From positions 1,847 to 65,846 of the forward strand of contig NZ_JBCFBA010000027.1 of NCBI RefSeq assembly GCF_038562415.1: DNA of 64,000 nucleotides, written 5' to 3'. Under the pieces are notes generated by a model, which was not told the origin of the DNA, searched no databases, and was given only the letters and a program-made list of their open reading frames with translations. Shown here one piece after another: positions 16,019 through 41,888 of the stretch (within the stretch, counting starts at the first letter, position 1; each line of letters starts with the position of its first letter). A program made the position numbers and the translations under genes. The DNA is from Solidesulfovibrio sp. GTDB lineage: Bacteria > Desulfobacterota > Desulfovibrionia > Desulfovibrionales > Desulfovibrionaceae.

Positions 16019-16476
16019 CCCCCTCCCCCCGCGCAACCCGAGGCAAGGGTCCGCCTGACCCCAAGGTTGCGGGGCGCCCGCCGGCCGCCTGGCCGTCGCG
16101 GTCGCTCTCGCCTCCCGCTGGCGCGTTGTCGCCCACCCCGCTCCGCCCGCCACCGCGGCTTTACACGGTGCGGTTTATTCATTATCGTCAAAAAACGCTG
16201 TTACGCGCCCGAGAGTCGTTGCAATAGGAACGGGATGTGGCCTCGCGCCATCCGTCTCCCCGCCGCAATGCCGCAACCGGGCCTCCCGGCGACATTGCGG
16301 CGCATGGTCTCCACGATCGCCTTTCCCCGCCGCCCCGCCGCCAGACCGCGTTACACCGGAACCGACCGCGCCCTCGCCCGGCCCGGCCGGCCCCGGAAAA
16401 GATGGGAACGGCTTCCGGATGCCGTTCCAAGAGGTGTCCCGCGTCCATCAACCCGCAACACGAGGAAGGAGAGGAG

Positions 16477-17955
16477 ATGAAACGTTTGACCGTGCCGGCC
16501 CTTTTGGCCGTGCTCCTTTTGGGAGCACTCGGCATCGCCCGGGCCGAGACGCAAGTGCGCGTCACCGGCGACTCCCGCGTCTACGGCGTCTATTTCAGCG
16601 GCCACAACTTCACCGGCTGGAACGACCCCGCCTGGACGTCCAACACCCCCACCTGGACCAAGGCCGGCACCAAGACCGAGGACACCTTCGAGATCTGGGA
16701 ACGCATCCGCGTGCGCACGGACTTCATCGCCAACGACAACCTGAAATTCCGCCTGGCCACCAAGGTGGACAACACCTGGGGCAACGGCACCTACACCGCC
16801 GCCAACCCCGACGTGGCCATCCAGGTCTACCAAGCCTTCCTGGAGTTCAAGTATCCGGACACGGACATCCAGATCAACGCCGGCCTCCAGCCCACGGCCC
16901 TGCCGCAAAGCGCCCTGTTCAACGACAGCATCGTGTTTACCGACTGGGCCGCCGCCCTGATCGTCAAGGCCCCGCTTATTGCCAACACCCTGGAGCTCAA
17001 TGCCGGCTTCGCCCGCATGATCGACACCAACCGCACCTTCGACCCCAGCACCACGCAGGTCGGCGACGAGCTGGATTTCTACATCCTGTCCCTGCCCATC
17101 ACCGTGCCCGGGCTCAAGGCCACGCCCTGGGGCGTCGTCGGCGTGGCCGGGGCCAAGGCCGGCTACTACACCGCCTACGCCTCGTCCTTCGCCGAGGGCT
17201 CCTACGCCGAGGACCTGCTCTCCGCCGGCACCCTCGTTGGCCCCACCGGCTGGAAGAACAACCAGAACCCCTACTACTGGGTGGGCGGCGCCTTCGAGCT
17301 GTCCGCCCTCGACCCGGTGCGCTTCTACGCCGACGTCATCAACGGCGGCGGCGCGATGAACGACCGCAACAAGAGCCGCCGCCAGGGCTGGTTCGTGGAT
17401 TTCGGCGCCGAATACACCGGCTTCGACATGCTCACTCCCCAGGTCTTCGCCTGGTGGTCCACCGGCGAAGACGGCTCCACCCGCAACGGCTCCGAGCGCA
17501 TGCCCCACACCCGCCCCAACTGGGGCCCGGGCGGCTCGTTCCTGTTTGACGACAGCCAGGTCTTCGCCCGCAACTCCAACATGGGCATGGACCCGGTGGG
17601 CGCCATGGGCCTGGGCCTGTCGCTCAATAACGTCACGTTCATGGACAAGCTCTCCCAGCGCGCCACCTTCACCTACTTGAAGGGCAACAACGCGCCCCGG
17701 GCCATCCGCGACCTCAACGCCGCCCTGGGTTCCAACCCCTACTTCCAGATGGGCCGCGACCTGACCACCAACGAGTACGCCCTCGGCGTCAACTTCGACA
17801 GCCAGTACATGATCTATGAGAACCTGGCCGCCCGCGTCGAAACGGGTTTCGCCCACGGCCAGTTCCAGGAAAGCGTCTGGGGCCACCGCCTGGCCAACAA
17901 GGCCAACGGCAACGACACCTGGAAAGTCGCTTTCGGCTTCACCTACAAATACTAG
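16477..17955 (+). CDS. Outer-membrane homotrimeric porin (Desulfovibrio type), 492 aa
   Basis: Signal peptide ending ARA-ETQVRVTGD; QRIRVRTDFIANDNL-like segment (WERIRVRTDFIAND); alternating beta strands; C-terminal WKVAFGFTYKY. Confidence 0.85.
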   Translation: MKRLTVPALLAVLLLGALGIARAETQVRVTGDSRVYGVYFSGHNFTGWNDPAWTSNTPTWTKAGTKTEDTFEIWERIRVRTDFIANDNLKFRLATKVDNTWGNGTYTAANPDVAIQVYQAFLEFKYPDTDIQINAGLQPTALPQSALFNDSIVFTDWAAALIVKAPLIANTLELNAGFARMIDTNRTFDPSTTQVGDELDFYILSLPITVPGLKATPWGVVGVAGAKAGYYTAYASSFAEGSYAEDLLSAGTLVGPTGWKNNQNPYYWVGGAFELSALDPVRFYADVINGGGAMNDRNKSRRQGWFVDFGAEYTGFDMLTPQVFAWWSTGEDGSTRNGSERMPHTRPNWGPGGSFLFDDSQVFARNSNMGMDPVGAMGLGLSLNNVTFMDKLSQRATFTYLKGNNAPRAIRDLNAALGSNPYFQMGRDLTTNEYALGVNFDSQYMIYENLAARVETGFAHGQFQESVWGHRLANKANGNDTWKVAFGFTYKY

Positions 17956-18173: not shown

Positions 18174-18836
18174 TCATTGAAGCTGTTCGACGAGCTTTTC
18201 CGCTCCCTTTTCGATGCCGGTCCTGGCCGCCGCCAAAGCGCCGAAACTTGCTCCGATATTCAATGAGTTCGGGTATTCCTTTGCGATATAGGCTCTCAGG
18301 AGTTGCGATGTCGCAGCATCATAGATCTCGACGGCATAAAGCACGGATCCGGTAAATGTACCCTCTCCACCACGTATGCTTTGGATTCCATTATAGAGAC
18401 CTCCCGAGAGGTCAAACCGAGACAATGTCCCCAGCACAGGCGTAGTTGTCGCAGCACCTGTCAATATAAGCTTCAATATCAAGGTATTTGAACCTGGACT
18501 GTATGTAATAGTGAACCTGGAAGCCAACTTTTCGACAAATTGAGAATACATATATGTCGCCAATTCTGTCTTGTCATCTTCAGACATCTTGCCGAATTGG
18601 TTGTCTGGCCCTCTGTAAATCGTGACATTGTCGACAATAATTTTATCATATATTCGCAAATTTGTCTGACTTGAGTAGCTGTATGGCATGGTCATTGACG
18701 CACCGTTTGTATCCGACCGGAGATATGCTGTTGAATACAACTCCTTGTACATGAGCGGTTTTGGAGTTCCACAGCCATAGAGTATTGCCGGGATCGCAAG
18801 AATCAAGAGTTGTCGTATCCAGTTTGCGTTGCGCAT
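18174..18836 (-). CDS. DUF3313-like lipoprotein, low GC, 220 aa
   Basis: Lipobox ILYGC; YDKIIVDNVTIY, VEIYDAATSQLLRAYI pattern; a sampled line (18481-18540) is 23/60 GC. Confidence 0.7.
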   Translation of the reverse strand: MRNANWIRQLLILAIPAILYGCGTPKPLMYKELYSTAYLRSDTNGASMTMPYSYSSQTNLRIYDKIIVDNVTIYRGPDNQFGKMSEDDKTELATYMYSQFVEKLASRFTITYSPGSNTLILKLILTGAATTTPVLGTLSRFDLSGGLYNGIQSIRGGEGTFTGSVLYAVEIYDAATSQLLRAYIAKEYPNSLNIGASFGALAAARTGIEKGAEKLVEQLQ

Positions 18837-18885
18837 TCGTATCTCCGCTGGGTTGAACGTTCCTTTCCTGGTCGCTGTCGACATG

Positions 18886-18901
18886 GTCACCTATCGGTGA
18901 C
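18886..18901. promoter_or_regulatory. Candidate TetR operator, GTCAC-N6-GTGAC
   Basis: gtcac-ctatcg-gtgac upstream of the lipoprotein start; same core as the site before tetR. Confidence 0.55.
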
Positions 18902-18924
18902 ATATGCTTCAAAAAAATATCCCC

Positions 18925-19572
18925 TCAGCCAGACTGCCCGAACACGCTTCGGATGATACGCGCCAACATGGCTTCCAGGCGCCGCCACGTCTCGTCTTCG
19001 TCCAGTGGAAGGCCGGCAAAGTCCTTTTCCGTGCGTGCCCGGACGCCCAAATGATTGATGACCCCGCCAAGGATGGCGAACAGAGCCGTCATGTCCAGGT
19101 CGGAGGGGGCATCCGCATCGGGTCGCAGCAGAGCCAAGAGCCGCATGCCGACGGACTCCCGGACCGAATCAATGGCGTCGGTCAACTCGTTGCGCACCAT
19201 GAACCGCCACGCCAGGACTTCCTGGGTCAAGGGCCGGCTGCGGAGGGCGCGCAAATAGTTTCGCACGCCGATGACCAGCCGTTCGGCATACGGCAGGACC
19301 ATGAAGGCCTCTATGTCGCCGCCAGCCAACTCCTGGGCATCGGGCCAGAAATCGCCGCTATGGGCAAAGGCCGCGACAAGACCGGGCAACCCGCCAAAAT
19401 ACCGGTAAATAAGAACCTTATCCACGCCAGCTTCCCGGGCGACAACATTGACCTTGACGGCTTGAAAACCTTGCCGGGCCAGCACCCGCCCCACGGACTC
19501 AACCAAAAGCCGCATGGTCGCTTCCCGGTCCCGTGGGCGGTCGGCCGCTGCGGGGCGTTTGTCATTTGTCAT
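18925..19572 (-). CDS. TetR/AcrR family transcriptional regulator, 215 aa
   Basis: VLARQGFQAVKVNVVAREAGVDKVLIYRYFGG helix-turn-helix. Confidence 0.92.
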   Translation of the reverse strand: MTNDKRPAAADRPRDREATMRLLVESVGRVLARQGFQAVKVNVVAREAGVDKVLIYRYFGGLPGLVAAFAHSGDFWPDAQELAGGDIEAFMVLPYAERLVIGVRNYLRALRSRPLTQEVLAWRFMVRNELTDAIDSVRESVGMRLLALLRPDADAPSDLDMTALFAILGGVINHLGVRARTEKDFAGLPLDEDETWRRLEAMLARIIRSVFGQSG

Positions 19573-19579
19573 GGCCGAC

Positions 19580-19603
19580 CTGTGTCACTTTAAAGTGACA
19601 CAG
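19580..19603. promoter_or_regulatory. 24-bp perfect palindrome, candidate TetR autoregulatory operator
   Basis: ctgtgtcacttt-aaagtgacacag, 7 bp upstream of the tetR start. Confidence 0.75.
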
Positions 19604-19874
19604 TCAAGCGACAAATCGCATTGCAAAAATACAAATAAAATCAAAGTAATATCAAAAAAACAGCGGCCCGCGACCAACGGTTCGGGGGTTCGAGTCACCC
19701 TCCCTGCTCCAGATTTCAAGGAGTTAGGGAAGTCACCCAGGCCGTCTTTTTCCTTGATGAACGAGATTTCATGCCCTTGCGGCCCGCAACACGGTTGCAT
19801 CCGCCGGGGGGAGTGACTAGAGGGTGACGGTCCGCGACCGCGCGCCATAAGCCAACCCCAAAAGGAGTCTCCCC

Positions 19875-21608
19875 ATGCCCGGGACGAAACGGCGCTTCCT
19901 GTCCGACCTGTGGACCCTGACCAAGCCCTACTGGAAAAGCGAGGAAAAATTCAAATCCGGCCTGCTGCTCGCCGTCATCATCGGCATGAGCCTCGGCATC
20001 GTGTATTTGAACGTCCTGTTCAACGAATGGAACAACCTCTTCTACAACTCGCTGCAAAATAAGGATGTGGACGCCTTTTTCCGCCTCTTCGGCCGTTTCG
20101 CCATCCTGGCCGCCCTGTTCATCATCGTGGCCGTCTATCAGATCTACCTGCGCCAGATGCTGCAGATCCGCTGGCGCCGCTGGCTCACCGAACGCCTCGT
20201 CGCCCGCTGGCTCGACGCCCACAACTACTACCGCCTGCGCTTCGAAAACGGACTCACCGACAACCCCGACCAGCGCATCAGCGAGGACATCAACGGCTTC
20301 ATCGAGCAGACGCTTTCGCTCACCCTGGGCTTCCTCGAAGCCGTGGTCTCCCTGGCCTCCTTTTCCGTCATCCTCTGGAACCTCTCCGGCGACATCCACA
20401 TCCTGGACCTGCCCATCCCGGGCTCCATGCTCTGGGCCGCCCTGCTCTACGCCGGCATCGGCTCGGTCCTGACCCACCTGATCGGCCGGCCGCTGATACG
20501 CCTCAACTTCTTCCAGCAGCGCTACGAGGCCGACTTCCGCTACTCCCTCGTGGGCGTGCGCGAAAACGCCGAACCCATCGCGCTCTACGGCGGCGAAGCC
20601 CAGGAAGCCCGGGGGCTGTCCGTACGCTTCGCGGGCGTCGTGTCCAACTGGTGGGCCATCATGCGCCGCCAGAAACGCCTGACCTGGTTTTCCGCCGGCT
20701 ATTCCCAGGCCGCCGTCATCTTCCCCTTCCTGGTCGCCGCGCCGCGCTATTTTTCCGGGGCCATCCAGCTCGGCGGGCTCATGCAGACCGCCTCGGCCTT
20801 CAACCACGTCCAGAATTCCCTGTCCTGGTTCATCGACGCCTACACCCGCCTGGCCGCCTGGAAAGCCACGGTCGACCGCCTCACCGGCTTCGCCGCCGCC
20901 CTGGAGGCCCTGGAATCGCGACGCGGCGAAGGCCTGGCCCGCACCGAGGCCGCGCCGGGCGACGGCCTGACCGTCGCCGACTTGCACCTTCGCCTGCCGG
21001 ACGGCCAGCCCCTCCTGTCCGCCCAGTCCCTGGCCCTGGCCCCGGGCCGGCGGGTCATGGTGGCCGGGCCGTCGGGCTGCGGCAAATCCACGCTCTTCCG
21101 CGCCATCGGGGGGCTTTGGCCCTTCGCCTCGGGCACCCTGGCCGCGCCGGCCGGCGAGCGCACGCTCTTTTTGCCCCAGCGGCCCTACCTGCCCATCGCC
21201 TCCCTGGCCGCCGCCGTGACCTATCCCGACGCGCCGGAAACCTACGGCCGCGAGCGCATCGCCGCCGCCCTCACCGACTGCGGCCTGCCCCATCTGGCCG
21301 GCCGTCTGGACGAGGAACGCCACTGGTCCCAGGAACTGTCCGTGGGCGAACAGCAACGCCTGGGGTTCGCCCGGGCGCTTTTAATCGCCCCGCGCTGGCT
21401 TTTCTGCGACGAGGCCACCTCGGCCCTGGACGAGGCCGCCGAACAGGCCCTGTATACCCTGCTGACCGCGCGCCTGCCCGACACGGCCATCGTCAGCATC
21501 GCCCACCGGCCGGCCCTGGCCCGTTTCCACCAGCGCGTCCTGCGCTTTACCCCGACCCCGGGCGCCCAGGCGCCGTACACGCTGGAAGAAGCGGCGACCG
21601 CGGCATGA
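19875..21608 (+). CDS. ABC transporter fused permease/ATPase, YddA/BacA(Rv1819c)-like, 577 aa
   Basis: DNPDQRISEDI, EADFRYSL (EAA-like), GPSGCGKST, LSVGEQQRLGFAR, DEATSALD. Confidence 0.88.
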   Translation: MPGTKRRFLSDLWTLTKPYWKSEEKFKSGLLLAVIIGMSLGIVYLNVLFNEWNNLFYNSLQNKDVDAFFRLFGRFAILAALFIIVAVYQIYLRQMLQIRWRRWLTERLVARWLDAHNYYRLRFENGLTDNPDQRISEDINGFIEQTLSLTLGFLEAVVSLASFSVILWNLSGDIHILDLPIPGSMLWAALLYAGIGSVLTHLIGRPLIRLNFFQQRYEADFRYSLVGVRENAEPIALYGGEAQEARGLSVRFAGVVSNWWAIMRRQKRLTWFSAGYSQAAVIFPFLVAAPRYFSGAIQLGGLMQTASAFNHVQNSLSWFIDAYTRLAAWKATVDRLTGFAAALEALESRRGEGLARTEAAPGDGLTVADLHLRLPDGQPLLSAQSLALAPGRRVMVAGPSGCGKSTLFRAIGGLWPFASGTLAAPAGERTLFLPQRPYLPIASLAAAVTYPDAPETYGRERIAAALTDCGLPHLAGRLDEERHWSQELSVGEQQRLGFARALLIAPRWLFCDEATSALDEAAEQALYTLLTARLPDTAIVSIAHRPALARFHQRVLRFTPTPGAQAPYTLEEAATAA

Positions 21609-22612
21609 ACGCCCTGCACAACCTGGATCTGTTCGCCCAGGCCACCCTGTCCATCGTCATCGAGGCCCTGCCCTTCCTGCTGCTGGGCTCCCTGGCCTCG
21701 GGCCTGGTGGAAGCCTACGTGCCGCGCGAGCGCCTGGAGCGGCTTTTGCCCAAGGGCCGGCTGGCCGCCACCGCCTTCGGCCTGGCCCTGGGCGCGGCCA
21801 CGCCCTGCTGCGAATGCGGCGTGGTCTACCTGGCCAGGCGCCTTATGGGCAAAGGCGTGCCCCCCGGTGCGGCCATCGCCTTCATGCTGGCCGCGCCCGT
21901 GGTCAACCCCGTGTCCATCCTGTCCACCGTGGTCGCCTTCCGGGGCGACCTGTCCATGGCCGTGTGGCGCTGCCTGCTGGTCGGCACGGCCGCCCTGGTC
22001 GTGGGCTACCTGGCCGGCGGGAAAAAAACCGAAGAGCTCCTGCGGCCGCTTTCCGGCCGCGAACCCGAATGCGGCTGCGACCACGACCACGGCCCGCCGG
22101 GTCATGCCCACCACCACGGCCCGGCAACCGTCCCGGGCACGCCCTTCGGGTCGCTGGCCGACGCCATGCCCGTGGCCGCCCTGCGCCGGCGCGCGCGTCG
22201 CGAGAAAGCCGCCTCCGCCTTGCGTCACGCCATGGCCGATTTCCTGGACATGGCCAAGGTGCTGGTCTTCGGCTCCATGGTCGCGGCGGCGTTTAAGGCC
22301 TACGTGCCGGCTCCGGTCATCATGGCCATGGAAAACGACCTGGCCCTGGCCATCCCGGGCATGATGGCCCTGGCCGTGGGCCTCTCGCTGTGCTCCCAGG
22401 CCGACGCCTTCGTGGCCGCCTCGTTTTCCACCTTCCCCCTGGCGGCGCGCCTGGCCTTTTTGAGCCTCGGCCCCATGCTCGACCTCAAACTCCTGCTCAT
22501 GTGGCGCGACGTCTTCACGCCCAGGCTCGTGCGCCTGCTGGCCTTCGTGCCGGCGGCCATCGTGTTTATGGCCTGTGTCGCCTTCGGCATCGTCACGGGA
22601 GGCGCCTCGTGA
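21605..22612 (+). CDS. DUF318/UPF0718 permease with His-rich loop, 335 aa
   Basis: ATGA overlap with the upstream gene; EALPFLLLG, PCCECG, LAAPVVNP, CSQADAF, GPMLDLK; loop ECGCDHDHGPPGHAHHHG. Confidence 0.85.
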   Translation: MNALHNLDLFAQATLSIVIEALPFLLLGSLASGLVEAYVPRERLERLLPKGRLAATAFGLALGAATPCCECGVVYLARRLMGKGVPPGAAIAFMLAAPVVNPVSILSTVVAFRGDLSMAVWRCLLVGTAALVVGYLAGGKKTEELLRPLSGREPECGCDHDHGPPGHAHHHGPATVPGTPFGSLADAMPVAALRRRARREKAASALRHAMADFLDMAKVLVFGSMVAAAFKAYVPAPVIMAMENDLALAIPGMMALAVGLSLCSQADAFVAASFSTFPLAARLAFLSLGPMLDLKLLLMWRDVFTPRLVRLLAFVPAAIVFMACVAFGIVTGGAS

Positions 22613-23409
22613 AAACGCCCTTCCCCAAGGCTCTGCTGGCCCGCGTCGACGGCGCCGCCTGGCTGGCCATGGCCGGCTTCATGGCCTGGCTGCCCCTGGC
22701 CGGCGACTACTGGATGTTTCTCAATCCCAAGTTCAAACCCGTCACCCTGTCCGCGGCCATGGTCCTGGGCGTGCTGGCCGCCTACGCCTTGTGGCGGCCC
22801 GTCTCCCGGCCAAGCTGGGGGCGCTGCCTCGCCTACTGCTTCCTCGCCGCCATGGTCGGCCTGACCCACGGCGGCACCCAGGCCATCTCCGGCGAAATCG
22901 ACACCGACCCCTTCGCCGTGGCCCCCAGCCTGCCCGCCCCGCCCCCCGAAGCCGTCCCCACCCGCATGACGGCCGGCGGCAAGGAATATATTCCCATCAA
23001 CACCGGCGAACTCTTCGACATCGCCGCCAAGGGCCCCGGCGAGGCCTGGGACAAACCCTACGTCATGCGCGGCTTCGCCCGCCGCGATCCGGCCCTGGAC
23101 GCGAAAGGCGAATTCGTGCTCTTCCGCCTGGCCGTGTGGTGCTGCTTCGCCGACAGCACGGGCGTGGGCTTCAAGGTCAAACTGCCGCCCGGCGCCGAGC
23201 TCCCGGCCGACAAGGGCTGGGTCGTCGCCTACGGCCGGCTCACGGAAATGCCCGCCGACCAGCGCGGCGAATACACCCTGCCCGGCATGACCTTTTCGAG
23301 TATCGCCCCGGGCGCGCTGTTTGCCGCCGACCAGGTGGAGTCCGCCCCGGTGCCGGCCGAACAGGTCTACATGTACGAATGGCGGGTGGCGGAGCCGTAC
23401 GCGTATTAG
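22609..23409 (+). CDS. DUF1980/TIGR03943-like membrane protein (YcgQ-like partner of the DUF318 permease), 266 aa
   Basis: GTGA overlap; N-terminal TM helices (FLNPKF), C-terminal FRLAVWCCFADS motif. Confidence 0.75.
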   Translation: MKTPFPKALLARVDGAAWLAMAGFMAWLPLAGDYWMFLNPKFKPVTLSAAMVLGVLAAYALWRPVSRPSWGRCLAYCFLAAMVGLTHGGTQAISGEIDTDPFAVAPSLPAPPPEAVPTRMTAGGKEYIPINTGELFDIAAKGPGEAWDKPYVMRGFARRDPALDAKGEFVLFRLAVWCCFADSTGVGFKVKLPPGAELPADKGWVVAYGRLTEMPADQRGEYTLPGMTFSSIAPGALFAADQVESAPVPAEQVYMYEWRVAEPYAY

Positions 23410-23450
23410 GGAAGGAGAGACGGGGAGATTAGGAGAGAGGAGAGAGGAGG

Positions 23451-23505
23451 GAAGATGCCTCCGGCGGCCGGGGGGCATGATGCCCCCCGGACCCCCTCAA
23501 CGGGA
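23451..23505 (+). repeat. REP-like element copy
   Basis: gaagatgcctccggcgg-ccggggggca-tga-tgccccccgg-accccctcaacggga after a purine-rich tract. Confidence 0.85.
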
Positions 23506-23551
23506 AGGCGGGAAACGGGTGGAGGCGTGGTCGGTTGGCGGTTGTCCGTCG

Positions 23552-23623
23552 GCGAGGCCGGAATGGGGCCTTTCGGTGCCGTCGCTGCGCTCCTGGCTCG
23601 AAAGGCCCCGATTCCGGCCTCGC
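23552..23623. repeat. Long hairpin (24-bp stem, one bulge, 23-nt loop)
   Basis: gcgaggccggaatggggcctttcg ... cgaaaggccccgattccggcctcgc. Confidence 0.8.
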
Positions 23624-23778
23624 AGGGCCGTCGCCCCTTCGGGGCGAATTCTTGGACTTTAACTTTGAAAGCCTCTTTAAAGACAATGTAAAAGTTGTTC
23701 TTCAGTACAGCGCTTCGTCTAACGGCCGCCGTTCATAACTTCTTATTCTTCACATGCGGCGCTTCGCCGCTGGCGCTT

Positions 23779-23851
23779 GTGGTCGCGCAATCGCCCCGGC
23801 CGAACTGGCCGGCTTTGCGGCCTGCACCGGCCGGGGCGATTGCGCGACCAC
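23779..23851. repeat. Long hairpin (24-bp perfect stem, 25-nt loop)
   Basis: gtggtcgcgcaatcgccccggccg ... cggccggggcgattgcgcgaccac. Confidence 0.85.
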
Positions 23852-23899
23852 CACGACCGACGCCTCGCCGCTGACCGTTCCCGACCATACCTCCACCCG

Positions 23900-23956
23900 C
23901 CCCGTCGGGGAGGTCCAGGAGGGGATCATCCCCTCCTGGCCGCCGGAGGCATCTTC
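23900..23956 (-). repeat. REP-like element copy overlapping the cadR C-terminus
   Basis: Minus strand gaagatgcctccggcgg-ccaggagggga-tga-tcccctcctgg-acctccccgacgggg; the loop TGA (23926-23928) is the cadR stop. Confidence 0.88.
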
Positions 23957-24369
23957 CCCTCTTCGCCACCACCCACGTCCCGTTCCTCCAGTTCCCGCAT
24001 GATGCCGCATTCCTCCACGGGCGTGGTGCCGGTACAGCATTCCCGCAGTGCGGCCAATTGCTCGCGCAGCGCGGTGAGCCGGGCGATACGTTCGGTGATC
24101 TGGCCGATGTGCGAATCGAGCAGCACGCTCACCCCGACGCAGTCGCCGGCCGAACCGTCCTTGAGGGACAGCAGTGCCCGGATCTCGTCCAGGTTCATTT
24201 CGAGGGCCCGGCAGTTGCGGATGAAGGTCAGCCGGGCCAGGTGGCTGGCGTCGTAGAGCCGATAATTGCCGTCGGAGCGGGCCGGATCGGCGAGCAAGCC
24301 TTCCTTTTCGTAGTAGCGGACGGTATCCGGCCGACAGCCGGTGCGGCGGGCCAGTTCGCCGATGCGCAT
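23926..24369 (-). CDS. cadR: MerR-family Cd(II)/Pb(II)-responsive regulator (CadR/PbrR-like), 147 aa
   Basis: MRIGELARRTGCRPDTVRYYEKEGLL, GNYRLY, metal Cys in GDCVGV and ECC...ECGI; divergent from a P1B ATPase. Confidence 0.85.
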   Translation of the reverse strand: MRIGELARRTGCRPDTVRYYEKEGLLADPARSDGNYRLYDASHLARLTFIRNCRALEMNLDEIRALLSLKDGSAGDCVGVSVLLDSHIGQITERIARLTALREQLAALRECCTGTTPVEECGIMRELEERDVGGGEEGKMPPAARRG

Positions 24370-24392
24370 GGCAACCTCCCTCGAAAAAATCC

Positions 24393-24423
24393 TTGACCCT
24401 GGAGTAGCTCCAAGGTGTCTCAT
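24393..24423 (+). promoter_or_regulatory. MerR-type promoter/operator for cadA
   Basis: TTGACC, 19-bp spacer containing the dyad cctggag-tag-ctccaagg, then TCTCAT. Confidence 0.8.
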
Positions 24424-24451
24424 GGGGTCCGAAAAGGCAAGGAGGTTTTTC

Positions 24452-26710
24452 ATGCCGACGCACAATCCCGGCCATGCCCATGGCCACGATCATAAACTTG
24501 AAGAACTGCGGCCCCTTGACGGTCAGGCGCCGTGCTGTTGCGGCGGGGCGTGCGAGGTCGCCGGCGCACCGGCCCTGGACGACGGCCCGCCGCCCCGGGC
24601 CGCCCAACGCGCGCTTTTCCGCATCGAGGCCATGGACTGCCCCACCGAGGAGGCCATGATCCGCAAGGCCCTGGGCAGCATGCCGGGTGTGGCCGGCCTG
24701 CGGTTCAATCTGCTCGCCCGGGAGCTGACGGTGCACCACGATTTGCCGGACACGGTCGGCATCGTGGCGGCCATCGCGGCGCTGGGCATGGAAGCCGTGC
24801 CCGTGACGGCGGATGGCGCCGCGCGCCGGGATACCGGCGAGACCGGGGCGTGGGTGACGCCGATCCAGGCCGTGGCCCTCGTGCTGGCCGTCGTGTCCGA
24901 GCTGGCCGAGTGGCGCCAGTTCGCCGCGCCCTGGCTGCCGATCGCCTGCGCGGCGGCGGCCATCCTGGCCTGCGGGTTGCCCATCTACAAAAAAGGCTGG
25001 ATCGCCCTGTCCCGGCGCGAGCTCAACATCAATGCGCTCATGAGCGTGGCCGCGACCGGCGCCATCGTCCTGGGCCAGTATCCCGAAGCGGCCATGGTGC
25101 TCGTGCTGTTCGCCATTGCCGAGCAGCTCGAATCCGTGTCCCTGGCCCGGGCGGGCAAGGCCGTGACGGCGCTTTTATCCCTGGCGCCGGAGGTGGCCAC
25201 CGTGCGCCGCGACGACGGCTCTTTTGCCGAGATATCGGCCAAGGATGTGGCCGTGGGTTCGGCCATCCGCATCCGCCCGGGCGAGCGCGTGCCGCTTGAC
25301 GCCGTGGTGGCCGAGGGCCGCTCGTCGGTGGACCAGTCGCCGGTCACGGGCGAAAGCCTGCCCGTGGAAAAGGCGCCGGGCGATGCGCTTTTCGCCGGCA
25401 CGATCAACCAGGAAGGGGAGCTTCTGGCCACGAGCACGGCCCTGGCCGACGATGCGACGATCGCCCGCATCACCCGGGCGGTGGTCGCCTCGCCGGGCAA
25501 GGAAGCGGCCATGAAGCGCTTCGTGGACCGGTTCGCGGCGGTCTACACCCCGGCGGTCTTTGCCGTGGCCGTAGCCGTGGCCGTGCTGCCGCCGCTGGTT
25601 TTCGGGGGGAGCTTCGCGGACTGGGTTTACAAGGGGTTGGTGATCCTGGTCATCGCCTGCCCCTGCGCCCTGGTGATTTCCACGCCGATCTCGGTGGTCA
25701 GCGGTCTGGCGGCGGCGGCGAGGCGCGGCATCCTGGTCAAGGGCGGCCTGTTCCTGGAGCGCGGCGGCTCGCTTCGGGCCGTGGCCCTGGACAAGACCGG
25801 CACCGTGACCACGGGCCGGCCGGTGCAGACGGATTTCGAGAGCCTCACCGGCGATCCGGAGGGCAACCGGGCCGTGGCGGCGAGCCTGGCGGCGCGCTCG
25901 GACCATCCCGTGTCCCGGGCCGTGGCCCAACGGGCCGGACAGGACGGCATCGTGCCCGGCCACGTCGAGGACTTCACCGCCCTGCCGGGCCTGGGTGTGC
26001 GCGGCGTGGTGGACGGGAACGCCTACCATCTGGGCAACCACCGGCTCATCGAGGAACTGGGGCTGTGTTCGCCGGCCATTGAGGCGCGCCTGGACGCCCT
26101 GGAGGAAGCCGGCAAGACCACGGTGCTGCTGGCCGACGCGCGAGGCGTCCTGGCCATCTTCGCCGCCGCCGACGCCATCCGGCCCCACAGCCGGGAGGCG
26201 GTGGAGGCGCTTTCGCGCCTGGGCGTGGCCACGGTCATGCTTTCCGGCGACAATGCCCGCACGGCCACGGCCATCGCGAAAGAAGCCGGCATACCCGAGG
26301 CCCGGGGCGACCAGTTGCCCGAGGACAAGGCGGCGGCGGTGGACGCCCTGCGGGCGGGGCTTGGCGGCAAGGGCTTCGTGGCCATGGTCGGCGACGGCAT
26401 CAACGACGCGCCGGCCCTGGCCCGGGCGGACATCGGTTTCGCCATGGGCGCGGCCGGCACGGACGCGGCCATCGAGACGGCCGACGTGGCCATCATGGAC
26501 GACGACCCGCGCAAGATCGCGGCGTTCATTGGCCTGTCCCGGGCGACCATGGCCATCCTCAAGCAGAACATCGCCCTGGCGCTTGGGCTCAAGGGGCTGG
26601 TGCTGGCGCTGACGGTGGCCGGGTACGGCTCCATGCTGCTGGCGGTTTTCGCGGACATGGGCACGAGCCTGCTGGTGATCGCCAACGGCCTGCGATTGCT
26701 GCGGCGCTGA
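24452..26710 (+). CDS. cadA: Heavy-metal (Zn/Cd/Pb) translocating P1B-type ATPase, 752 aa
   Basis: His-rich N-terminus, MDCPTEE metal-binding domain, TGES, CPC, DKTGT, SDHP, GDGINDAPALA; GGAGG RBS. Confidence 0.92.
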   Translation: MPTHNPGHAHGHDHKLEELRPLDGQAPCCCGGACEVAGAPALDDGPPPRAAQRALFRIEAMDCPTEEAMIRKALGSMPGVAGLRFNLLARELTVHHDLPDTVGIVAAIAALGMEAVPVTADGAARRDTGETGAWVTPIQAVALVLAVVSELAEWRQFAAPWLPIACAAAAILACGLPIYKKGWIALSRRELNINALMSVAATGAIVLGQYPEAAMVLVLFAIAEQLESVSLARAGKAVTALLSLAPEVATVRRDDGSFAEISAKDVAVGSAIRIRPGERVPLDAVVAEGRSSVDQSPVTGESLPVEKAPGDALFAGTINQEGELLATSTALADDATIARITRAVVASPGKEAAMKRFVDRFAAVYTPAVFAVAVAVAVLPPLVFGGSFADWVYKGLVILVIACPCALVISTPISVVSGLAAAARRGILVKGGLFLERGGSLRAVALDKTGTVTTGRPVQTDFESLTGDPEGNRAVAASLAARSDHPVSRAVAQRAGQDGIVPGHVEDFTALPGLGVRGVVDGNAYHLGNHRLIEELGLCSPAIEARLDALEEAGKTTVLLADARGVLAIFAAADAIRPHSREAVEALSRLGVATVMLSGDNARTATAIAKEAGIPEARGDQLPEDKAAAVDALRAGLGGKGFVAMVGDGINDAPALARADIGFAMGAAGTDAAIETADVAIMDDDPRKIAAFIGLSRATMAILKQNIALALGLKGLVLALTVAGYGSMLLAVFADMGTSLLVIANGLRLLRR

Positions 26711-39084: not shown

Positions 39085-39411
39085 TCACGGGCGCGGCCCG
39101 AGCAGGATGACGCCGCTGCCGACCAGGCACAGGGCCACGCCGGCCAGGTCGAAACGGTCGGGCCGCTGGCCCTCGACCAGCCACAGCCAGGCCAGGGATG
39201 CAAAAATGTAGATACCGCCATAGGCGGCGAAGATGCGGCCGGCGGCGGCGGCCTCGACCCGGGTGAGCGCCCAGGCGAAGACGAGGAGCGAGGCGAGGCC
39301 GGGCAGGGTCCACAAGGGGGAGCGCCCCAGGCGCAGCCAGGCGTAGAAGGCGTAACAGCCGCCGATTTCGGCCAGGGCGGCCAGGAAATACCAGGCGGTG
39401 GCGCGCAGCAT
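39085..39411 (-). CDS. ynfA: YnfA/UPF0060 family small membrane protein
   Basis: [36 protein letters not shown]. Confidence 0.88.
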
Positions 39412-39731
39412 GGGGGCATGATGCGGCAAGGCGAGACGTCTGTCCAGGGGGGGAGGAGGCGGGCGGCTGCCCCGGCGGGATTACATTACCGAACAGAAAG
39501 GATCCGTTGTCCATGCAACGGAGGGGCATTTCATTACAAACTGACAATTACGTCAATCATTGCAAACATGAAATGTTACAAACCGGTCTCTTTACGGTAA
39601 GGATCGCTGAAAAAAGAAGAGACAACCGACGAGGTTGCCGCATCGTTGCGACAAAGTTGCATACGTTTGACGACACATGCGACACTCTTGTCCCTAAACA
39701 AGCGGGCCGGACAAGCCGGACCATCGGGCGC

Positions 39732-39786: not shown

Positions 39787-39950
39787 AAATCCTTGTCATT
39801 GCGGCGAGGCACCATTTTACAAGCGGAGGGGAATCATGACTGCCGGAATCGATTCTTCATAGCCCGTCGGACCCATACGGCTTGTGCGGGAAACGCTGCC
39901 CCAAGGCCCCGGCGCATCCGCCCGGGAAAACCACGGACGTGGAGAAGAAC

Positions 39951-41534
39951 ATGAAAAAAGGCATCCATCTGTTGCTCCTGGCCCTGTTGACCGTCACACT
40001 GGCCTTGCCGCTTTCGGCCCTGGCCGACGACGCCCCGGCCCCCACCCCGGATCCCTCGGGCGCCTCCATCGGCACCGCCGCCGACATCGTCGGCATGTCC
40101 GCCGGCGCGCCCACCAAGGAAGACCTGGCCACCCTGGCCGAAAAGGAACCCCTGGCCGCCAAGGTGGCCGACGCGGTCGGACACAACCGCATCTCCATCA
40201 ACTTCGTCTGGACGCTCGTTTGCGGCTTCCTGGTCATGTTCATGCAGGCCGGCTTCGCCCTGGCCGAGACGGGCTTCACCCGGGCCAAAAACGCCGGCCA
40301 CACCATGGCCATGAATTTCATGGTCTACGGCATCGGCATGCTCGGCTACTGGATCTGCGGCTTCGCCCTGCAGATGGGCGGCGTGGGCGGCGTGGCCAGC
40401 CTCGGCGGCGCCCAGGTGCTGGCCAACGAGGTTTCCATCAACATCGGCGGCAACGACTTCGGCATCTTCGGGGCCACCGGCTTCTTCCTGTCCGGCGTGT
40501 CCTACGACGCGGTGGTGTTTACCCTGTTCCTGTTCCAGATGGTCTTCATGGATACCACCGCCACCATCCCCACCGGCACCATGGCCGAGCGCTGGACGTT
40601 CAAGTCCTTCGTGGTCTACGCCTTCTTCATCTCCATGTTCGTCTATCCGCTCTACGCCAACTGGGTCTGGGGCGGCGGCTGGCTGTCCACGCTCGGCAAG
40701 TACTTCGCCCTGGGCCACGGCACGGTGGACTTCGCCGGCTCCTCGGTGGTGCACATGACCGGCGGCGTGGCCGCCCTGGCCGGCGGCCTGATCCTCGGGC
40801 CGCGCCTGGGCAAGTACAAGCCCGACGGCACCCCCAATGCCCTGCCCGGCCACCACATCCCCATGGCCGTGACCGGCTGCTTCATCCTGGCCTTCGGCTG
40901 GTTCGGCTTCAACGCCGGCTCCTCCCTGGCCGGCACGGACCTGCGCATCGGCGTGGTCGCCGCCAACACCATGCTGGCCTCGGCCGCCGGCGCGTTCTCC
41001 GCCATGCTGTACATGTGGACCTTCTACGGCAAGCCCGACATCTCCATGATCGCCAACGGCTTCCTGGCCGGCCTGGTGGCCATCACCGCGCCGTGCGCCT
41101 TCGTCAATTCCGTCTCGGCCGTCATCATCGGCGCCATCGCCGGCATGCTGCTGTGCGCCAGCGTCTTCTTCGTCGAGCGCACGCTCAAGATCGACGACCC
41201 GGTGGGCGCCATCTCGGTCCACGGCGTCAACGGCGCCTTCGGCCTGCTTTCCGTCGGCCTTTTCGCCGACGGCACCTACGGCGACGCCTTAAACGGCGTG
41301 GACGGCACGGTGAAGGGCCTGTTCTACGGCGACGGCGGCCAGCTCATGGCCCAGCTCATCGGCATCTGCACCAACTTTGTCTTTGTCTTCCTGGTGATGT
41401 ATGTCTTTTTCAAGGTGCTCAACCTCATCACCCCGCTTCGCGTGAAGCCGGAGTACGAGCTTGAGGGCCTGGACCAGCACGAAGTGGCCGTGACCGCCTA
41501 TCCGGAATTCGTCCTGCAGAAAACCCACCGGTAA
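39951..41534 (+). CDS. amtB: Ammonium transporter, 527 aa
   Basis: FMQAGFALAE, FQMVF, MAER, DFAGSSVVH, WFGFNAGS, DDPVGAISVHG; N-terminal signal/extension. Confidence 0.95.
   Translation: MKKGIHLLLLALLTVTLALPLSALADDAPAPTPDPSGASIGTAADIVGMSAGAPTKEDLATLAEKEPLAAKVADAVGHNRISINFVWTLVCGFLVMFMQAGFALAETGFTRAKNAGHTMAMNFMVYGIGMLGYWICGFALQMGGVGGVASLGGAQVLANEVSINIGGNDFGIFGATGFFLSGVSYDAVVFTLFLFQMVFMDTTATIPTGTMAERWTFKSFVVYAFFISMFVYPLYANWVWGGGWLSTLGKYFALGHGTVDFAGSSVVHMTGGVAALAGGLILGPRLGKYKPDGTPNALPGHHIPMAVTGCFILAFGWFGFNAGSSLAGTDLRIGVVAANTMLASAAGAFSAMLYMWTFYGKPDISMIANGFLAGLVAITAPCAFVNSVSAVIIGAIAGMLLCASVFFVERTLKIDDPVGAISVHGVNGAFGLLSVGLFADGTYGDALNGVDGTVKGLFYGDGGQLMAQLIGICTNFVFVFLVMYVFFKVLNLITPLRVKPEYELEGLDQHEVAVTAYPEFVLQKTHR

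Positions 41535-41888
<354 letters not shown>

Follow-up and report, generated by a model that had tools for sequence, protein, structure and literature searches.

A Solidesulfovibrio operon that appears to join two autonomous transport modules: an Rv1819c-type ABC transporter and a DUF318/DUF1980 permease pair with a probable role in zinc acquisition

When three overlapping genes encode an ATP-binding cassette (ABC) transporter, a permease and a small membrane-anchored protein, do they specify one transport system or two? The question is raised by a 64,000-nucleotide stretch of DNA from Solidesulfovibrio sp. (assembly GCF_038562415.1, contig NZ_JBCFBA010000027.1, positions 1,847 to 65,846), here called the window, in which three same-strand genes fill positions 19875–23409. 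The original prediction for this locus, made from the sequence alone, was that the three proteins constitute a single three-component uptake route for a metal or metallo-cofactor (cobalt/B12, nickel or zinc). Our analysis leads to another answer. With a probability of roughly 0.55, the genes form one operon that joins two autonomous transport modules, brought together only in the genus Solidesulfovibrio, and the pair formed by the permease and its partner probably serves zinc acquisition. The three genes are:

19875–21608, forward strand, ABC transporter gene, 577 amino acids
21605–22612, forward strand, permease gene, 335 amino acids
22609–23409, forward strand, DUF1980-type partner gene, 266 amino acids

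The ABC and permease genes overlap by an ATGA (21605–21608) and the permease and partner genes by a GTGA (22609–22612), as the original prediction had described. A scan for terminator and promoter consensus sequences found no intrinsic terminator of note inside the operon. The Cys/His motifs reported earlier for the permease and the partner, and the genes for a CadR regulator and a P1B ATPase nearby, are also present in the sequence, and the earlier family assignments were upheld by Pfam and NCBIfam profiles.

The closest solved structure to the ABC protein is that of Rv1819c (PDB 6TQE; E = 4e-112), which matches over the full length (residues 11–558). The same membrane and ATPase architecture is found in Rv1819c of Mycobacterium tuberculosis (6TQE/6TQF), in Escherichia coli YddA and in the eukaryotic ABCD proteins, including ABCD4. 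Three Pfam domains were detected, all above cut-off: ABC_membrane_2 (E = 1e-61, 209 bits), SbmA_BacA (7e-33, 115 bits) and ABC_tran (2e-16, 61 bits). They describe an N-terminal SbmA-BacA-like membrane domain fused to one nucleotide-binding domain, that is, a half-size transporter of the Rv1819c/YddA/ABCD type, which presumably acts as a homodimer. The ATPase motifs are intact (Walker A GPSGCGKST, signature LSVGEQQR, Walker B LFCDEATSALD) and, with the domain fusion, place the protein among the Rv1819c/YddA/SbmA-BacA-like ABC transporters. Relatives of the Rv1819c/YddA type import hydrophilic solutes, peptides or cobalamin, and uptake of bleomycin is also counted among the activities of the group. 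For the gene described here, neither a cobalamin riboswitch nor any other Rfam match was found in the whole window at gathering thresholds, or in 18800–24500 at E-values up to 1. This search gave no support to the cobalt/B12 part of the original prediction.

The permease belongs to the ArsP_1 family (PF03773, DUF318), matching the profile over essentially its whole length (positions 5–293 of 294; E = 5e-53, 180.7 bits against a cut-off of 32.3) and carrying the Cys-x-Cys in the second hydrophobic segment, here within P-C-C-E-C. About 4+4 hydrophobic segments flank a central hydrophilic loop, ECGCDHDHGPPGHAHHHG, which contains ECGCDHDH...HAHHH and is probably cytoplasmic, as its basic character suggests under the positive-inside rule. 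The P-x-C-E-C motif was present in all 33 aligned permease homologues except one (L033, with C-D-C), and the loop motif C-G-C-G-H-D-H is kept both in congener permeases and in distant Desulfobacterota homologues.

The partner passed the Pfam cut-off for DUF1980_C (36.7 bits against 25.9; E = 4e-9) while missing that of NCBIfam TIGR03943 (78.8 bits against 88.8), which marks it as a divergent TIGR03943 relative. Two further features agree with membership in the TIGR03943/DUF1980 group: its gene directly follows that of a PF03773 permease, and it carries the CC motif (WCCFAD; C178 and C179 in CC-x-AD). The two cysteines were invariant in 50 sequences, and R..CC.AD is conserved far outside the genus. 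Because congeners and distant Desulfobacterota homologues alike retain the Cys/His motifs of permease and partner, these are not a product of chance. An AlphaFold2 model of the partner (mean predicted local distance difference test score 87.8) begins with three helices, which a disordered linker joins to a C-terminal beta domain resembling an oligonucleotide/oligosaccharide-binding (OB) fold; a Foldseek search with this model returned generic OB folds only (RPA, RMI2, the AspRS N-domain) and no informative homologue. The basic N-terminus and the three membrane helices suggest that the CC domain would lie in the periplasm. Neither this topology nor that of the permease loop settles the direction of transport.

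In its general plan, the pair resembles the DUF318 and TIGR03943/DUF1980 pairs of the YcgR/YcgQ type, such as ScfA/ScfB of group A Streptococcus: two adjacent, overlapping genes, the first for a permease of about eight segments with C-x-C and the second for a small membrane-anchored protein with CC. The pair differs from the YcgR/YcgQ and ScfAB type in that its partner falls just under the TIGR03943 cut-off and in that an ABC gene precedes it in the same operon.

Whether the ABC gene is tied to the pair was addressed from both sides. A scan of a genome collection with the ABC protein gave 80 loci with ABCs 51–86% identical, in which the pair was sought within 6 kb of the ABC gene. It was found only in the single congener and in none of the 79 genomes outside the genus, where the ABCs are 51–66% identical and come from Pseudomonas, Burkholderiales, Rhizobiales, Azospirillum, other Desulfovibrionaceae and more. 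Among 122 open reading frames (ORFs) flanking these homologues elsewhere, no metal-related family recurred. Together, the absent linkage and the absence of a recurrent metal family indicate that the ABC gene is normally solitary. The ABC gene described here differs from its Rv1819c-type homologues in being co-transcribed with a metal-type permease pair, an arrangement seen in 0 of 79 homologous loci outside the genus. From the side of the pair, a word-based search with the DUF1980 protein reached almost only Solidesulfovibrio. TIGR03943 matches were found in 21 of 401 Desulfobacterota genomes, and the permease directly adjoined the partner in 18 of 20 phylum loci, the other two being a contig that was too short and a locus without a permease match. 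None of 19 other Desulfobacterota pair loci had a YddA-type ABC, generic ATPase-domain matches being all that was found, and an ABC membrane domain was likewise absent from all 80 loci of a metagenome scan with the permease alignment, many of them just 1–5 kb long. The pair is the real conserved unit; the ABC, in every other lineage examined, is solitary and without a fixed partner.

Within Solidesulfovibrio, the picture is different. An ABC orthologue is present in 23 of 24 genomes, and the ABC gene is followed by the permease and partner genes in 17 of 19 congener loci, with ABC identities of 77–89%. Of the 17 linked loci, roughly 10 have genes that abut or overlap by tblastn coordinates; the others have spacers of ~15–85 nt. 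In one of the two exceptions (G010), the ABC gene is followed directly by cadR and the ATPase gene, and the pair was not found in the genome, which is 88% complete; in the other (G003), the ABC gene and the pair lie on separate contigs (C18 and C30).

The overlapping codons, the gene order kept through the genus and a shared promoter region that is conserved across it are what a true three-component importer would predict, in which the ABC dimer, permease and partner would act on a single substrate, whether a metal chelate, cobalamin or a zinc–ligand complex, as one complex or an obligatory relay. We nevertheless regard such an importer as quite improbable. The linkage is limited to one genus, one congener has the ABC without the pair and another has both unlinked, and there is no B12 riboswitch. 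In most genomes with an Rv1819c-type ABC, and likewise in most with a DUF318/DUF1980 pair, the module stands alone. Outside the genus, the comparison of gene neighbourhoods that the original prediction had proposed as its own check therefore gave the genomic outcome that it had named as counting against it, and the operon should not be taken as a sign of a new three-part transporter. As a lineage-specific twist, in which an orphan Rv1819c-type ABC has come to sit on a shared promoter, it could instead reveal what this class of ABC does in environmental bacteria.

What the pair might do is suggested by its neighbours elsewhere. ZnuA was the commonest family beside it, occurring in 5 of 18 other Desulfobacterota loci (76 flanking ORFs) and immediately adjacent each time; every other family appeared at most twice. 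Among the 80 metagenome loci, 22 had a ZnuA, 14 a Zur-like, 14 a ZnuB and 11 a ZnuC gene, and at least one of these was present in 26. Three of the adjacent ZnuA genes are the sole ZnuA-family gene of their genome (G405:C1, locus L021; G318:C2, L038; G369:C10, L030), with the znuB-type gene on another contig or 21 kb off. A ZnuA that is the only one in the genome, or that has no ZnuBC at hand, beside the pair raises the question of whether ZnuA feeds the pair. In three of the five pair-adjacent ZnuA proteins, the His-rich loop is marked, with 9–11 His in 25 residues; such a loop is characteristic of the zinc-specific members. We also observed that ZnuA flanks the pair without ZnuBC within 7 kb in five long metagenome loci (L148, L155, L156, L157 and L161), accompanied in L155 and L156 by a Zur-like gene.

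The congener in which the pair is separate from the ABC gene offers a further example. At G003:C30 (locus L136, 5071–12086), the pair is flanked by metE on one side and by a Fur-family gene on the other; ZnuC-like and ZnuB-like genes come next and, further downstream, a ZnuA-like gene. The Fur-family regulator and ZnuC/ZnuB at this locus are the second such set in that genome. No Desulfovibrio-type Zur box is present there, and its Fur-family regulator therefore probably uses a different operator.

We propose zinc acquisition as the function of the pair because ZnuA, ZnuBC and Zur are its recurrent neighbours, because a sole ZnuA can stand beside it and because its Cys/His motifs are conserved. 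For the original prediction of metal uptake, this means that the genomic context supports such a role for the permease pair, with zinc as the favoured metal. Many bacteria have a DUF318/DUF1980 pair, and the comparative data offer for such pairs a concrete, testable function.

The genes on the downstream side of the operon might point to the opposite direction of transport:

23926–24369, reverse strand, CadR-PbrR equivalog (160 bits against 151.45)
about 24455–26710, forward strand, P1B-2 heavy-metal ATPase

These genes, convergent or divergent to the operon and separated from it by a spacer of ~520 nt, are found ~0.5 kb downstream here and in five congener loci, including the one without the pair (G010). 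They could indicate that the pair, like its characterised relatives, exports a metal or metalloid and works with them in detoxification. The organoarsenical exporter ArsP, the Cu/Zn efflux permeases SO_0444 and Shew_3410, and SaoE belong to the same Pfam family, and they too conserve the position of the Cys-x-Cys (bioRxiv 10.1101/2022.07.06.499078). Of the NCBIfam families, SO_0444 (Cu/Zn efflux) is the one that the permease resembles most; Shewanella depends on a DUF318-type gene to tolerate zinc; and 2 of 19 phylum loci have a P1B ATPase in the vicinity of the pair. However, the permease scored far below the equivalog cut-offs, with 88.4 bits against 300 for SO_0444, so that it is not a member of that group, and 40.9 bits against 325 for SaoE. 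To our knowledge, the ArsP, SO_0444/Shew_3410 and SaoE proteins work without a DUF1980 partner. The CadR and ATPase genes, correctly described as lying next door in this genome, are variable in their adjacency within the genus: G014, the closest relative, lacks them at the pair locus, as do most of the remaining congeners, and neither a CadR-like nor a P1B-ATPase gene was found beside the pair in any of the 80 metagenome loci. Finally, the recurrent neighbours of the permease are uptake and not efflux genes, here as elsewhere, and the box upstream of the operon, described below, resembles a Zur and not a MerR site. We therefore consider export rather unlikely and retain zinc acquisition as the preferred reading.

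The upstream region of the operon was compared in an alignment of 16 upstream regions from the genus. It contains two elements of immediate interest:

19784–19800, palindrome without assigned strand, Zur-box-like sequence ccGCAACacgGTTGCAT, agreeing with 12/14 specified positions of ATGCAACNNNGTTGCAT and ending 74 nt before the ABC start codon
19795–19823, forward strand, putative sigma-70-type promoter with -35 TTGCAT, a 17-nt spacer and -10 TAGAGG

The promoter was deduced from conservation and was not called by the consensus scan; GGGTGACGGTCCGC, after the -10, is likewise conserved across the genus. The Zur-like box overlaps the likely -35. The reference sequence, ATGCAACNNNGTTGCAT, is the Desulfovibrio Zur operator consensus predicted by Rodionov et al. 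2004 (PMC545781). As in the Desulfovibrio Zur regulon, this genome has a znuA-znuC-znuB-zur cluster, in which a copy of that box with a single mismatch lies shortly before znuA, and five congeners have it in the same place with 0–1 mismatch. Its presence upstream of znuA in six Solidesulfovibrio genomes indicates that the consensus is valid for the genus. By comparison, the candidate copy at the operon is imperfect, and only this strain and the four most closely related ones (L121–L124) have it. In those four loci (15–18 kb each), it was the sole match at up to 3 mismatches and stood at the same spot relative to the promoter elements; L121 also has an insertion in the leader. In the whole genome, the operon site is one of six matches at up to 2 mismatches. 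Zur control of the operon through this predicted box is plausible.

The promoter region also bears on the possibility that the arrangement has no functional meaning, the pair having arrived behind a constitutive ABC gene in the ancestor of the genus, with read-through transcription alone being shared. The ABC gene keeps its upstream neighbours (porin, Fe-hydrogenase) and its promoter elements with or without the pair, and two congeners have either lost or relocated the pair, as this explanation would have it. We consider it unlikely, given that both overlap and arrangement have been maintained throughout the genus and that, in one subclade, the shared promoter acquired a Zur-like half-site.

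If the operon indeed joins two autonomous modules, with zinc acquisition served by the pair, its action may be pictured as follows. The first module would be a homodimeric ABC transporter of the Rv1819c/YddA type, and the second an ArsP_1/DUF318 permease with its DUF1980/TIGR03943 partner, of the ScfAB/YcgRQ type. Under zinc limitation, the second module would acquire zinc or a closely related soft divalent metal. The OB-fold domain of the partner, with its CC-x-AD, and the membrane-embedded P-x-C-E-C of the permease might pass the ion across the membrane, and the C-G-C-G-H-D-H of the permease loop might take it up on the cytoplasmic side. Because the shared promoter carries a Zur-like operator, zinc scarcity would probably derepress both modules together in this strain and its nearest relatives. 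It is possible, but doubtful, that the operon as a whole is a Zur-governed zinc-starvation uptake unit, in which the pair would be an uncharacterised zinc importer, possibly fed by ZnuA elsewhere, and the Rv1819c-type ABC would have been recruited to import a zinc–ligand complex or a zinc-sparing cofactor.

Several observations weigh against two autonomous modules with a role in zinc acquisition. Comparative genomics might miss a functional coupling of the genes, of which their overlap, retained in roughly 10 of 17 linked loci, could be a sign. The Zur-like box has two mismatches, and its right half may owe its conservation to the -35 hexamer alone. Even with 3 mismatches allowed, no box was found in the other 11 congener loci (L125–L135), nine of which bear the pair (L126–L130 and L132–L135). 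At the stringency that gave six genome-wide matches for the consensus, control palindromes gave 1–9. The PF01297 and ABC-3 families also include manganese and iron systems, so the metal of the G003 cluster is not certain. In the literature, we found no experiment on a DUF318/DUF1980 pair that establishes what is transported or in which direction; where a DUF1980 partner is present, a single infection-fitness study, of ScfAB of group A Streptococcus (PMC5584981), was all that we found, and nothing newer. It reports an in vivo fitness defect, in tissue, and no more. The characterised ArsP_1 relatives, ArsP and the Shewanella zinc-stress gene Shew_3410, export.

Other Zur-box-like matches in the genome were set aside. 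Those on contigs C9, C13 and C44 are core matches inside likely coding ORFs, and the one on C48 lies between convergent ORFs, within a longer G/C-rich palindrome. Two sites in the window with 2 mismatches each, at 39513–39529 and 39646–39662, fall in an AT-rich spacer between a YnfA/UPF0060 gene (39085–39480, reverse strand) and amtB-glnK (39882–41888, forward strand), which have no link to zinc; these are probably chance matches or sites of another regulator.

Upstream of the operon, one further gene of note was found:

16237–17955, forward strand, Desulfovibrio-type outer-membrane homotrimeric porin gene (NCBIfam DESULF_POR1, 342.7 bits against 250)

In most congener loci, the porin gene is located just upstream of the ABC gene. 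Here, genes for a TetR regulator and a DUF3313 lipoprotein (18174–19572), with ~50–55% GC compared to ~66–72% in the flanks, sit between the porin gene and the operon promoter. This islet is absent from all 15 congener loci and looks like a recent insertion; for that reason, TetR was rejected as a regulator of the operon.

A sigma-54 reading of GGTTGCA in the promoter region was also rejected, as the spacing does not fit. Two more elements in this region are conserved across the genus: an imperfect palindrome, ATGAAC-N5-TTTCAT, at 19757–19772, ~22 nt upstream of the -35, and GACTAGAGGGTGACGGTCCGC at 19814–19834, across the -10 and the likely transcript start. Neither had an Rfam match; they could be regulator sites or a leader element.

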